64,000 nt of DNA from an uncultured Armatimonadetes bacterium (GCA_963717145.1 OY970325.1:1312001-1376000), one strand, 5' to 3'; positions 2,369 through 63,961 are shown, counted from the stretch's first letter. Notes: generated by a model not told the origin, from the letters alone. Made by a program: numbers and translations.

Positions 2369-2450
2369 ATGGTTGATGGTTCATGGTAAATGGTTGATGG
2401 GAGACATCCGCATCTACCACTCCCCATCAACCATCAACCATTCTCCATCA
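2369..2450. repeat. Inverted heptamer tandem-repeat hairpin, ATGGTTG/CAACCAT family
   Basis: atggttg-atggttc-atggtaa-atggttg-atgg ... ccatcaa-ccatcaa-ccattct-ccatca; the final tca is the stop codon of the minus-strand gene. Confidence 0.9.
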
Positions 2451-3863
2451 CTTCGCCTCCGCCGCTGGTGCTACCTCAGCCGAAGCCGGGTCCTGCACGG
2501 GGGCCGGCGACACGACCTCAGCCGCCGCTTTCTCCACGTCAGCCGGAGGAGTAGCAGTGGGATTCGAAACGGGCGCAGGTGGCACGGTAGTGCGCTTCTC
2601 TGCGTCGTACAGCATGTCGTACGTCGCATTCATCAGCTTGGCAAATCCCTGGCGCTCGGGCGAGTTGTAGATCGCGGAAGCGTTGTCGGCCGTCTCGTTC
2701 CAGTTGTAGTACCCGAGACCGTTTGCGGAAGCGGCGCAATCGATACCGAAGGCCACCGCCCTGTCGTTCGATGAATCGCCATAGAACCGGTATCCGAGGA
2801 CCACTTTCTTGCCGTTGAGCATCATCAGGTCCTGGTCCTTCTTCACCTGGCCGGACGATGTGTTGCCCACGGTGCGGATGAAGACGATGTTGGCAAACTC
2901 GACGATCCGCATATCATTCGCGTCGTTCCAGCGGTACGCGCCGGCGTCGGGGTTGTCGATGCTGAAGGGATACGCGATCTCGGCGGCCAGAAGAACATCC
3001 TTGTGCCTCTTGCGAACATCCGACGCGATATCGTTCAGCGCATTGCCGATGATCTTGGCGCGGAAGGCCATGTGTTCCTTCACGGCAACCGGCATCTTCT
3101 GCTTGTCCTCGAATGCGTAGTTGAAGATCGACTTGTCGCAGGGGTCAATCTCGTCGAAGGTCTTATAGCTGGTTCCCCACTTGGAGTTCAGTTGGTTCAG
3201 ATCGTAGTAGCTGGCCTTCATCCACTTGCGGAAGTAGTTGTTCGTGTCTTCGTCAAACGAGAGCGGCATGCCCTTGTCGTCACGCCATCCCGCCTCGACC
3301 ATCAGCGCCACGACCGGCCGAATCCGCTTGCCATCCTTGATCCGGAGCAGCGCGGGGTCGTTCTCGTACCGGTCCAGGTAGACGTCGATGTAGTGGGCCA
3401 GCGCGCTCCTGAACTCGCCGTCTCGGAAGTCGCAGGAGTCGGGAACAGGCTGCTTGTCCTGGTTCACCGCCTGCTTCAACTCGAGGCGCGAGAACTGCAT
3501 CAACCCCTGGCGGTCTCCCGCTTGCAGCTGCAACCACGGGAGGACGCTGACCTTCTCCTGGCCTGCGAGCTTGTACTCCCTGTCGAGCCAGAACCAGTCG
3601 CGGTTGACCGCCTGGCTGACCTCGTGATCGACGCAAATCGTATTGAAGCCAATTTCCCTCAGCCGCTGGAGGTCCTTTGTCACGGCGGCATCGTCGCTCT
3701 TCCACGGCTCCCACCAGTGGCCGAAGAAGTAGATAGACTTCAGCAGTTGGCCGTCCGCCAGTCGGATGGGATCCTGTGTGGTGATCTTGCCCGCCTGCAC
3801 GACCCCGGCCAGGATTATGAGCGCGATGCAGAGGACGAGCAATCTCGAATGCAGCCTTGACAT
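2448..3863 (-). CDS. Secreted glycoside hydrolase (beta-galactosidase/GH42-like TIM barrel) with Pro/Ala-rich tail
   Basis: Signal peptide; DLQRLREIGFNTI and FRKWMKASYYDLNQLNSKWGTSYKTFDEI motifs typical of GH42-like proteins. Confidence 0.65.
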   Translation of the reverse strand: MSRLHSRLLVLCIALIILAGVVQAGKITTQDPIRLADGQLLKSIYFFGHWWEPWKSDDAAVTKDLQRLREIGFNTICVDHEVSQAVNRDWFWLDREYKLAGQEKVSVLPWLQLQAGDRQGLMQFSRLELKQAVNQDKQPVPDSCDFRDGEFRSALAHYIDVYLDRYENDPALLRIKDGKRIRPVVALMVEAGWRDDKGMPLSFDEDTNNYFRKWMKASYYDLNQLNSKWGTSYKTFDEIDPCDKSIFNYAFEDKQKMPVAVKEHMAFRAKIIGNALNDIASDVRKRHKDVLLAAEIAYPFSIDNPDAGAYRWNDANDMRIVEFANIVFIRTVGNTSSGQVKKDQDLMMLNGKKVVLGYRFYGDSSNDRAVAFGIDCAASANGLGYYNWNETADNASAIYNSPERQGFAKLMNATYDMLYDAEKRTTVPPAPVSNPTATPPADVEKAAAEVVSPAPVQDPASAEVAPAAEAK

Positions 3864-4047
3864 TGAAACCTCCTGTCGTTCACTGGGAAACCGCGATTAT
3901 CGTTAGCCTGAAACCGGCGCATTACGGAAGCCGGCACAATTGCCGGTATTCTAGCATTCGATAGCTTTCAGGTCAAGGAACTGGACTCGCGAGAAACAAC
4001 TGGCGTCGGTGAGTTTGACAAAGACCCTCGCAAATCGTAGAATCCCT

Positions 4048-4186
4048 TGGAGTGCGGCGGCTTGACGCCGCTTTCGGAGTGCGATGGCTCGACATCACTC
4101 ACCTGAGCCGTGGCTCCACATGGCGGCTCCCCGGACGGCGTCAAGCCGCCGGGGACCAAAGCGATGTCGAGCCATCGCACTCCAAA
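4048..4186. repeat. REP-like palindromic element, TGGAGTGCG family (composite)
   Basis: tggagtgcggcggcttgacgccgcttt ... aaagcgatgtcgagccatcgcactccaaa; related copies at 12478, 19109, 28747. Confidence 0.85.
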
Positions 4187-4194
4187 GGATCACA

Positions 4195-62949: not shown

Positions 62950-63003
62950 TGGTTGATGGCTGATGGCCCCCCATTAACCATCAACAATCAACCATTCACC
63001 ATC
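62941..63003. repeat. Inverted heptamer hairpin, ATGGTTG family
   Basis: aatggtt-gatggtt-gatggct-gatgg / ccattaa-ccatcaa-caatcaa-ccattca-ccatc; supplies NG* of the transporter. Confidence 0.88.
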
Positions 63004-63012
63004 GGGGTTTCT

Positions 63013-63447
63013 ATGCCAAACGTCCACAAAGACTTTCACGGGTGCTTCAGTTTCGGGCTGAAGTTCCTGCTCGAAAACTACGGGCCCGCCGAGATGCAGG
63101 AGTACCTGCGCCGCGTCGCTCGCACCGTCTACGCGCCTCTGATCGAGTCGATCCGGGATCGAGGACTCCCGGCGCTGGAGGATCACTGGCGCGCGGTCAT
63201 GTCGATCGAGGAGGCGGATTTCGACCTTCACTTCACGGACGACGACAGGCTCGTGCTCCAGGTCAGGGAGTGCCCGGCGATCACTCACATGCAGGCGCGC
63301 GGATACAAGGTGTGCCCGCGGTTCTGCAAGGCGACCCGCATCGTGAACGATGAGATCTGCCGACGCGCAGGGTACATCTCTGAGATCACCTACGATCAGG
63401 ACACCGCGTCCTGCACTCAGCGGTTCCGGAAGGAGGCCGACCGATGA
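63013..63447 (+). CDS. Small Cys-motif protein (V4R/ATC-hydrolase-like)
   Basis: HKDFHG, ECPAI, CPRFC, C-terminal SCTQRF. Confidence 0.65.
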   Translation: MPNVHKDFHGCFSFGLKFLLENYGPAEMQEYLRRVARTVYAPLIESIRDRGLPALEDHWRAVMSIEEADFDLHFTDDDRLVLQVRECPAITHMQARGYKVCPRFCKATRIVNDEICRRAGYISEITYDQDTASCTQRFRKEADR

Positions 63448-63881
63448 TCTCCTGCACCGAGTTCATCATGGCCTACAGCGAGTTGTTCGCGTTCATCGAG
63501 GAACGCCATGGCAAGGACGAGCTGATCCGCTTCTGGGAGGAGTTGGCCGACGAGTTTCTCTTCAACCTGCGCGACCTCGTGGCCGAGAAGGGCTTCGAGG
63601 GGATGCAGGAGTACTGGGGCCACACGCTCTCCGAGGAGGGCGCGGACTGCCGGATAGTGCTCACGGATGATGAGTTCCGCCTCGAGATGAACGAATGCCC
63701 GTCGGTGGCGATTCTCCGTCGGAACGAGCATCTCACGCCCTACCCCGACTACTGCGAGCACTGCAAGGTGCTCTACCGCCGGGTGATCGAGCCGTTCGGG
63801 TTCAAGTGCGAGACGACGGTGCTCGATCCCGTGATGGGTCGGTGCGTGCTTCGGATGACGAGGGAGGGAAATGGAAAATGA
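63444..63881 (+). CDS. Paralogous small Cys-motif protein (V4R/ATC-hydrolase-like)
   Basis: MISCTEFI, ECPSV, YCEHC, GRCVL; ATGA-coupled to the previous gene. Confidence 0.68.
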   Translation: MISCTEFIMAYSELFAFIEERHGKDELIRFWEELADEFLFNLRDLVAEKGFEGMQEYWGHTLSEEGADCRIVLTDDEFRLEMNECPSVAILRRNEHLTPYPDYCEHCKVLYRRVIEPFGFKCETTVLDPVMGRCVLRMTREGNGK

Positions 63882-63961
63882 AACATGCAAACTGTAAAAT
63901 GAAAAAGGGGACATGGGGCTGGATTTTGCCTTTTGCACTTTGCATTTTGCACTTTTCATTT
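63870..63961. repeat. Inverted heptamer hairpin, AAAATG(C/A) family
   Basis: aaatgg-aaaatga-aacatgc-aaactgt-aaaatga ... ttttgcc-ttttgca-ctttgca-ttttgca-cttttca-ttt; supplies the TGA at 63879. Confidence 0.85.

Follow-up and report, generated by a model that had tools for sequence, protein, structure and literature searches.

The 64,000-nucleotide stretch of the genome of an uncultured Armatimonadetes bacterium analyzed here (the window; bases 1312001-1376000 of a single 5.37-Mb contig, 60.6% G+C) carries a system of about 15 short repeat elements, in most of which several degenerate copies of a short word are followed, after a spacer, by an inverted array of related words. Such a system had been proposed in a first-pass annotation made from the sequence alone, and Tandem Repeats Finder, direct reading and RNA folding confirmed 14 two-armed hairpins and one single-armed element. 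We consider the window hairpins to be probably gene-less members of families of stem-loop cassettes. The elements have a common architecture, their families are linked to small cargo genes, the type of cargo is paired with the period of the word, and elements have been gained, lost and replaced at orthologous sites. A full cassette would comprise a G-rich tandem-word arm, a small gene and an inverted C-rich arm, with heptamer arms accompanying a gene for an S23p/PF05635 four-helix-bundle protein and words of 8-10 nucleotides (nt) accompanying a gene for a GxxExxY (PDDEXK_3) protein.

The link to cargo genes is complete in this genome. All four PF05635 genes lie between inverted heptamer arrays and all three PF13366 (GxxExxY) genes between inverted 8- or 9-mer arrays, each gene having its own word. 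The flank inverted-repeat scores of the seven genes range from 40 to 82; for the third PF13366 gene, which scores 48, the arrays were seen by eye. Among 809 other open reading frames (ORFs) of 270-650 bp, which served as a control, one was bracketed by the same Tandem Repeats Finder criterion and eight had a flank score of at least 30, most of these being flanked by palindromic repeats of the repetitive extragenic palindrome (REP) type. The suggestion in the first-pass annotation that similar arrays flank four-helix-bundle and GxxExxY genes therefore holds in this genome (7/7 versus 1/809). The four PF05635 proteins have a mutual identity of only 17-31%.

In eleven of the 15 window elements the word is one of the seven that accompany cargo genes: four with ATGGTTG, three with TTCGAAA, one each with TGGGTTT and AAAATGC, and the nested pair at 40516 and 40567. 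The word of the hairpin at 2369..2441 also brackets the PF05635 gene at genome position 3610583, that of the element at 27284..27436 the one at 3157790, that of 52472..52534 the one at 2982941 and that of 63876..63961 the one at 3893695. For the nested pair, the ACACGGAA-type word of the outer arms (40516..40700) brackets the GxxExxY gene at genome position 4778441 and the CAGGAAGC word of the inner hairpin (40567..40652) the one at 2092774. As the window words also wrap seven small genes, the hairpins look like gene-less relatives of a type of insertable cassette that is widespread but has hardly been described. The window itself contains no cargo gene according to a Pfam search of its 52 ORFs, which agrees with the absence noted earlier, and all matches in the genome lie elsewhere.

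PF05635 is present in 54 of the 121 genomes that we sampled from the phylum. From these we took, together with 700 nt of DNA to either side, the 40 best matches that did not lie at the edge of a contig. At 23 of these loci the gene is bracketed by inverted arrays with no more than one mismatch between their units, 21 with period 7 and two with period 8, the word being different at every bracketed locus; many of the other 17 loci have degenerate arrays on one or both sides. PF13366 is present in 22 of 61 genomes. Of the best 20 loci, 10 are bracketed, all by arrays of period 8, 9 or 10, and 19 have a flank inverted-repeat score of at least 30; the arm words at these 20 loci are often of the CACRGAGR type. 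Since PF05635 occurs with period 7, rarely 8, and PF13366 with periods 8-10, the type of cargo predicts the arm period. The order of the arms is also shared, with more G than C in the left arm at 23 of 26 bracketed PF05635 loci of other genomes and at 7 of 10 GxxExxY loci.

In some lineages the word can be followed together with its gene. Two other genera of the family possess orthologues of this genome's ATGG-word gene, 61% and 56% identical to it, at other loci, where the arms are ATGGCTN and ATGGTCA arrays with the same ATGG core; the genomes that hold these orthologues are the two family members rich in ATGGTTG-like arrays. The GGGTTNT-word gene has an 89% identical orthologue at the syntenic locus, with the same word. 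A further genome (G032), which has many pattern matches and no close orthologue, was considered as a counter-example to the link between word and cargo and discarded, its core being GGTTG.

Over the whole genome, arrays of at least 2.8 copies are far more frequent than in a 3-mer-shuffled genome (period 7, 455 versus 16; period 8, 299 versus 17; period 9, 151 versus 14; period 6, 149 versus 25; period 10, 13 versus 5). An inverted partner within 150 nt was found for 222 of the 444 merged period-7 arrays, against 2 with a complement-only control, and for 130 of 283 period-8 arrays, against 59 with the same control, which is weak for this period. When neighboring arrays were taken in pairs (287), the orientation was inverted in 139 and direct in 9. 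The scan for arrays of periods 7, 8 and 9 with an inverted partner, suggested at the outset as a check, thus stands far above shuffled controls and yielded, after merging, 249 hairpin elements in the genome. These are located between tandem (159), convergent (37) or divergent genes (22), or inside ORFs (31).

What these elements hold constant is the length of their arms and not the number of their units: arms have a median of 30 nt at period 6, 31 nt at periods 7 and 8 and 32 nt at period 9, and the heptamers have a median copy number of 4.4. A typical hairpin of the ATGGTTG family starts with GGGGA, continues with four or five units, ATGG and a loop, and returns as a mirror image ending in TCCCC; the loop has about 10-14 nt and is often itself a small G+C-rich hairpin. 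ATGG is 94-98% conserved in this family, partly as a consequence of the selection rule, and positions 5-7 vary, so that the earlier description of units with a conserved core and variable remaining positions is accurate. Equally accurate is the statement that the two arms are not copies of each other. At the variable positions, agreement between the two arms of the same hairpin is 54.3%, compared to 52.1 +/- 1.5% for arms of different elements, and compensatory pairing of these positions was thus not found. Because agreement within hairpins is about the same as between elements, the arms drift independently, and pairing at the variable positions is not maintained.

It had further been proposed that the system recognizes periodicity and structure rather than sequence. 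The constancy of arm length across periods 6-9, at about 31 nt, points to structure, which supports the one half of this proposal; the other half, the exclusion of sequence, does not stand, as the four-nucleotide core is near-invariant within a family and travels with the cargo lineage across genera.

In RNA folding, 13 of 16 stretches of the window reached z-scores of -3.7 or lower, with 0-1 of 200 shuffles folding as well. The 13 comprise 11 of 14 stretches that were folded as one set, together with 40512-40705 and 27280-27440; the weak folds are 4682-4752 (z -2.7), 52100-52160 (z -2.1) and 54540-54600 (z -1.8). The stems in these folds have a mismatch or a small internal loop at every unit boundary.

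The arms have a preferred order. The left arm has more G than C in 193 of the 249 hairpins, and in the ATGGTTG family the G/T-rich arm comes first in 76 hairpins and second in one. Stop codons in all three frames were considered as the cause of this order and rejected: the explanation holds for ATGGTTG, which has TGA at the unit joints, but fails for the stop-free GGGAGTAT/GGGAGTGT.

With regard to their location, the elements are often placed directly at the ends of genes. Of 215 element sides facing the end of an ORF, 72 have the stop codon inside the arm and 69 have it 0-5 nt before the arm, together 141. tRNA genes are frequent neighbors, with an element within 120 nt in 14 of 51 cases, compared to 382 of 3887 ORFs; hairpins of the AAGTACA family form the spacers in three tRNA clusters (genome 228011-228355, 1051053-1051247 and 4560742-4561275), 3-14 nt from the tRNA ends. 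A TTCGAAA-family hairpin lies in frame inside ligA (4685..4748, z -2.7), where it accounts for 18 residues extra relative to E. coli LigA, at a gap before the EVRGEV motif in an alignment to 2owo. Finally, two elements are hosted by the T-box leader of ileS (52061..52442, plus strand, RF00230). One is a single-armed TTCGAAA array in stem I (52091..52153), an insertion in the cmscan alignment, whose single arm had been recognized in the first-pass annotation (z -2.1); the other, an ATCAGTT/GATCACY hairpin, occupies the apical loop of stem II (52236..52308, z -6.2). The leader matches RF00230 over all 219 model positions with 47.5 bits (E 2.8e-9), and it is because of the inserts that this genuine T-box falls below the gathering score of 93; such inserts can therefore hide riboswitches from annotation. 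T-box stems, ligA, tRNA spacers and stop-codon sites are all places where an added stem does little harm, a principle also seen in the intervening sequences of 23S rRNA.

Turnover of the elements is evident from a related genome (G151), which is collinear with the window from 34 to 64 kb at 70-83% DNA identity. We compared 12 sites, at which either the alignment broke or an element lay. Three sites carry the same family in both genomes (the dapF junction, T-box stem II and the site upstream of ileS) and three carry different families within the same outer boundaries (the hflX-aminotransferase junction, the junction between Nramp and the next ORF, and 63848). Two sites are occupied in the window only (48049 and T-box stem I) and two in G151 only (the LmeA-DUF5107 junction, with a hairpin of eight 8-mers, and a third T-box site), and the remaining two are occupied in neither genome. 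The number of units differs between orthologues, and in the T-box of G151 the stem I array is short and the stem II element has one arm only.

Turnover is also seen in soil-metagenome contigs about 90% identical to the window (X1-X4, from four runs of three studies, X1 and X2 being from one sample). In X1, X2 and X4 position 52090 is joined to 52154, 8-9 other letters replacing 63 nt; in X3 the same joint is shifted by one or two bases. X1 and X2 also join 52233 to 52305, with 7 letters replacing 71 nt, and skip 52469-52543, where the intervening sequence was not seen. The joints share one depth and succeed one another along what looks like a single contig. Parts of the window without metagenome cover, such as 51340-52006 and 56009-57342, were left out of the evidence. 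The alignment of orthologous loci, another of the checks suggested for this system, thus shows empty sites and family swaps, not simple vertical descent. Together with the family-linked cargo, this does not fully fit arrays that merely diverge along with their flanking DNA, or members of an already characterized repeat class.

If the window hairpins are gene-less cassettes, each family would be defined by a short invariant core in its word, the other positions being free to drift. As RNA, the arms, of about 31 nt each, would form a stem that is interrupted by a mismatch wherever two units meet and that brings the flanks together. Since the stem would rejoin the flanks, an element should be tolerated wherever an extra stem is harmless, that is behind stop codons, between cistrons and tRNA genes, in the apical loops of a T-box leader and, rarely, in frame within the loop of a protein. 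The cargo proteins may plausibly act in trans on arms of their own word, thereby spreading or maintaining the copies without a gene, a suggestion that we make with some reserve. With similar reserve, the analogy to the intervening sequences of 23S rRNA suggests that the stems may be cut by RNase III, which is encoded in the genome. More speculatively, the G-rich-first order would keep a C-rich, Rho-loading stretch unexposed until its partner has been made.

Several findings speak against cassettes, or reduce the weight of the evidence for them. We looked for recent copying of elements and did not find it: there are no near-identical copies among the 249 elements, and since the best pair is only 86-91% identical, there is no sign of recent duplication. 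Of the 444 period-7 arrays, half (222) lack a partner. The genome contains no cargo copy for TAGACAT, the word of two window elements, or for ATCAGTT, and none for the largest 8-mer family, GGGAGTAT/GGGAGTGT, with 43 hairpins. Across the phylum, PF05635 proteins of 55-68% identity mostly carry unrelated words, and the mean word distance is 3.18 for 40 pairs with at least 50% identity versus 3.43 for the 338 remaining pairs, so that the divergence of the word does not closely follow that of the protein. Judged from these comparisons, either the link between word and gene is real but not tight, or the turnover of the word is rapid. Counted by family, the polarity of the arms is only 53:26, and it is reversed in period-6 families (14:2). 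No target duplication was evident in the ATGGTTG-family flanks that we read, which was not a systematic test. One T-box site, which among three lineages is empty in one, one-armed in another and two-armed in the third, also fits local growth. As to the data, gene calls are our own and crude, and the joints in the metagenome rest on contigs with a likeness of 85-95% and on short sides (28-76 nt), which can mislead. The assembly may also carry indel errors, for ileS (52554-55684), the sole ileS of the genome, has several frameshifts relative to the intact 1049-residue IleS of G151, with an intact T-box leader; the broken gene is either the product of such errors or a recent pseudogene.

A good part of this would be expected if the arrays were born locally, by slippage of the polymerase as in microsatellites, and gained their second arm under selection for a stem. 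Only the small genes would then be mobile, inserting preferentially into the loops of hairpins, and the arms would belong to the site, not to the gene. The lack of near-identical copies, the unrelated words of related PF05635 proteins, the single-armed half of the period-7 arrays and the T-box loop that is empty, one-armed or two-armed in three lineages all favor such an origin. So does the variable linker of IleS, in which arrays of different period occupy the same coding position in two genomes, a 9-mer array here (11 residues) and a 7-mer CCGAAAC array in L054 (coding EQSETRNPK), both single-armed and in frame. The nesting at 40516 shows that loops accept inserts, and slippage has been proposed as the source of the heptamer excess in bacteria in an earlier study (PMC4692102). 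However, a family whose copies at 76 loci have in common the end motifs GGGGA...TCCCC, a characteristic order of units and loops that are related is not what local birth would produce, and the 52% identity between arms of different elements is higher than expected from position frequencies alone. Nor would it lead one to expect that orthologous cargo keeps the ATGG core at non-orthologous loci, that cargo type predicts arm period, or that arm length is constant across periods. Local birth with homing genes is thus the main rival of the cassette families, accounting for the absence of recent copies and for the loose tie of the word to its protein but not for the shared ends and loops, the ATGG core or the period-cargo rule, and we regard it as unlikely.

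A second alternative is that the hairpins are ordinary RNA structures selected by the host, such as bidirectional terminators or REP-like stabilizers of 3' ends, and that their likeness to cargo arms is secondary. Their stems are strong, and 141 of 215 sides facing an ORF end lie at or just behind a stop codon. They are also enriched between convergent genes (37 of 218 non-internal elements, compared to 315 of 2411 junctions with a gap of at least 50 nt), but the enrichment is mild, and a strong preference for convergent junctions was considered and dismissed. On the other hand, the U run of intrinsic terminators was not found after the 3' arm in the flanks that we read, where the sequence is typically TCCCC, although no terminator scan was made. 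Further, elements also occur in 5' leaders, in T-box stems and inside the reading frame of ligA, orthologous sites in relatives lack them or carry another family, and seven of seven cargo genes are bracketed against one of 809 controls, all of which makes a host function as the primary explanation quite improbable. Least credible, and very improbable in our judgment, are G-quadruplex-forming or length-variable arrays that tune neighboring genes by quadruplex formation or phase variation: Xanthomonas GGGAATC arrays of like design form quadruplexes in vitro (PMC4692102), GGG runs exist in some families here (GGGAGTAT, GGGTTNT) and unit number differs between orthologues, but most families lack G runs (ATGGTTG, AAATTCG, TAGACAT, AAGTACA, AAAATGC), the complementary arm would compete with quadruplex folding, and most elements lie behind genes, not in promoters.

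Of the known repeat systems, the heptamers of Xanthomonas, GGGAATC or (GGGANTN)n, come closest in design. As reported (Rehm et al. 2015, PMC4692102), their positions 1-4 are conserved, they mostly have four units, 89-93% of them are intergenic and they lie close to the upstream ORF. Each genome has 70-75 convergent pairs of a plus and a minus array, in which the G-rich strand comes first whichever strand is read. Their length and sequence vary between related species. They were read as G-quadruplex DNA. The elements described here share with them the conserved core and variable remainder, the copy number, the convergent pairing, the excess of G in the left arm and the proximity to the stop codon of the upstream ORF. 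In contrast to the Xanthomonas heptamers, for which the accessible text describes one family and no cargo link, there are dozens of families here, with periods 6-9 and a cargo gene per family, and ATGGTTG, AAATTCG, TAGACAT and AAAATGC contain no GGG run.

A second group with clear resemblance are the ORF-bearing intervening sequences of 23S rRNA in Coxiella, Leptospira and others. According to an earlier report (PMC4990558), these replace the tetraloops at helix tips, their complementary borders form a stem, they may carry an S23p four-helix-bundle ORF, their distribution is sporadic and they are excised by RNase III. Complementary borders folding into a stem are also found in our elements, an S23p/PF05635 ORF is present in four cassettes built from window words elsewhere in the genome, and in one case, the apical loop of T-box stem II, the insertion is at the tip of an RNA helix. 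Unlike the intervening sequences, most of our elements have no ORF, their arms are made of tandem words, and their sites are intergenic gaps, a T-box leader and ligA. No rRNA match was found within the 64-kb window, so that the elements there lie outside rRNA. The assignment to an uncharacterized mobile or RNA-processing system is supported in part, by the family-linked cargo genes (7/7), yet 'uncharacterized' is too strong, given the pairs already printed for Xanthomonas and the known S23p cassettes.

Other similarities are more general. The genomes of cyanobacteria contain highly iterated short tandemly repeated repetitive (STRR) heptamers, which, judged by their description, resemble our elements in that they are plentiful between genes, occur in 2-6 tandem copies and contain related variants of the unit. 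The same is true of the TAACTGA sets of Beggiatoaceae, which differ in that they are direct (169 direct, 1 inverted) and located upstream of start codons (PMC4679880), whereas here inverted pairing is the rule and the elements stand behind stop codons. With REP sequences, their paired forms (REPINs) and MITEs (miniature inverted-repeat transposable elements) our elements have in common that they are short, dispersed, hairpin-forming and mostly intergenic, with occasional in-frame copies in genes. Unlike REPs and REPINs, they have arms made of tandem arrays with variable positions and lack near-identical copies. Inverted ends are present, and the parent-like copies carry PF05635 or PF13366 and not a known transposase. 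REPs of the GTAG type also occur in this genome, where they form a class of their own. In the window, a 34-bp unit repeated 4.9 times at 23801-23968 and a palindrome at 39190-39245 have GTAGGGGCGG-type heads and belong to this class, distinct from the tandem-word hairpins.

By way of analogy only, the arms also recall the target of the trp RNA-binding attenuation protein (TRAP). TRAP is a protein ring that recognizes spaced triplets in RNA. Here, too, short conserved cores are separated by spacers of free sequence, and S23p has been reported as a pentameric ring (PMC4990558). The modal number of ATGG cores is five (69 of 152 ATGGTTG arms), and we considered whether each unit might be bound by one protomer of a pentamer; we rejected this, as it is arm length, not unit number, that is constant.

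New in this work are the map of one word per gene in a closed genome, the period-cargo rule, an arm length that stays constant at about 31 nt, the finding that the two arms drift independently, the G-rich-first rule across independent families and a dated gain and loss inside a riboswitch. PF05635 and PF13366 are, to our knowledge, large protein families without known function. Our literature searches, which did not cover subscription papers or database family descriptions, revealed no publication in which PF05635 or GxxExxY genes are connected with tandem-word arms. Heptamers are in excess in many bacterial genomes with no accepted cause, as stated in the Xanthomonas study (PMC4692102). Generalizing from the present data, one might suppose two cargo-specific classes of selfish cassettes across bacteria, one with heptamer arms and a ring-forming S23p/Avd-like protein and the other with 8-10-nt arms and a GxxExxY nuclease-like protein. 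Each protein would read the core of its own word and seed or maintain gene-less hairpins with arms of about 31 nt all over the genome, including those in riboswitch and rRNA loops, and the stem would make the insertion harmless as RNA. We regard this generalization as rather doubtful. If true, it would explain both the heptamer excess and the function of two very large families of small proteins. The closed genome makes the link between this excess, PF05635/PF13366 and rRNA intervening sequences concrete and testable, through the individual word of each of the seven genes, the use of these words by most hairpins of the window, the period rule and the empty sites in relatives.

Turning to the individual elements of the window, Tandem Repeats Finder reported arrays of period 7, 8 or 9 at every position where the first-pass annotation had placed one, and the sequences were also read directly. 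An automatic search for inverted partners gave 12 two-armed elements; for two more, in ligA (4685-4748) and the outer one of the nested pair (40516-40700), both arms were recognized by folding. Four hairpins belong to the ATGGTTG family. The first (2369..2441, z -6.1) lies between greA, with its stop at 2366, and a convergent ORF with its stop at 2448. The second (7088..7169) follows a DUF1844 gene, has an outer clamp of GGGGG and CCCCC, and folds with -64.3 kcal/mol (z -9.3). In the third (48049..48117, z -7.4) the first arm holds the stop codon of a DUF5107 gene, and the site is empty in G151. The fourth (62931..63003, z -4.7) fills the whole gap between the Nramp gene, whose stop is in the first arm, and the next ORF, and is replaced by another family in G151. 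Elsewhere in the genome, several ATGGTTG hairpins (e.g. 443086, 1679856, 260554, 4593431 and 4111444) adjoin TGGGACTTGACA or its reverse complement, as if they were composite. In another genome, 28 overlapping ATGGTTG-triple matches on one strand within 750 nt (G013:C1:264961-265710) form either a very long one-armed array or a coding repeat.

Two hairpins of the TAGACAT family are located between convergent ORFs (11562..11637, z -5.7) and between an aminotransferase gene and dapF (41902..41996, z -9.3), the latter with the same family at the same site in G151. Arms of the AAATTCG/TTTCGAA type enclose an interior of 91 nt upstream of an MgtE-type gene (27284..27436, z -6.4). A TGGGTTT-family hairpin separates the T-box terminator from the start of ileS (52472..52534, z -4.2), again with the same family at the same site in G151, and an AAAATGC-family hairpin lies at 63876..63961 (z -3.7).

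The 8/9-mer elements comprise a CACGGAGG-type hairpin (25880..25950, z -8.9) located 69 nt upstream of tRNA-Leu(CAG), whose word resembles the GxxExxY arms of other genomes and has no cargo copy in this one, and the nested pair. In the latter, the outer ACACGGAA-type 8-mer arms (40516..40700, assigned by folding) enclose the inner CAGGAAGC 8-mer hairpin (40567..40652, z -5.8). The nesting had been noted before and is borne out by folding, in which the 194 nt of 40512-40705 form a single uninterrupted stem to which both families contribute (-98.2 kcal/mol, z -11.6). By contrast, the array at 54546..54578 (plus strand, z -1.8), which had been counted as a single-armed member of the system, turned out to be a coding 9-mer array in the variable linker of ileS, forming no hairpin and not belonging to the system.

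Several observations were made in passing. Just upstream of a gene for a class I aminoacyl-tRNA synthetase (27% identical to IleS), GGGAGTGT-type arrays occur at genome 1057254-1057616, and these may represent a second leader RNA with such inserts. Between the metallo-beta-lactamase-fold gene and the T-box, the window has about 1 kb (51067-52063), of which a metagenome joint skips 995 nt and which is much shorter in G151; the ORF it contains (51661-52041) has no Pfam match. Between its orthologues of miaA and LmeA, G151 (contig C18, L054/L055) carries a 950-bp insert with two small ORFs where the window has only 56 nt. Two further small genes of the genome are bracketed by inverted repeats that are not tandem: a DUF559-like gene (890870-891205) and a GIY-YIG-like gene (4323478-4323822), the latter with perfect arms of 46 bp. 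The gene-in-a-stem layout is thus shared by other small nuclease genes.

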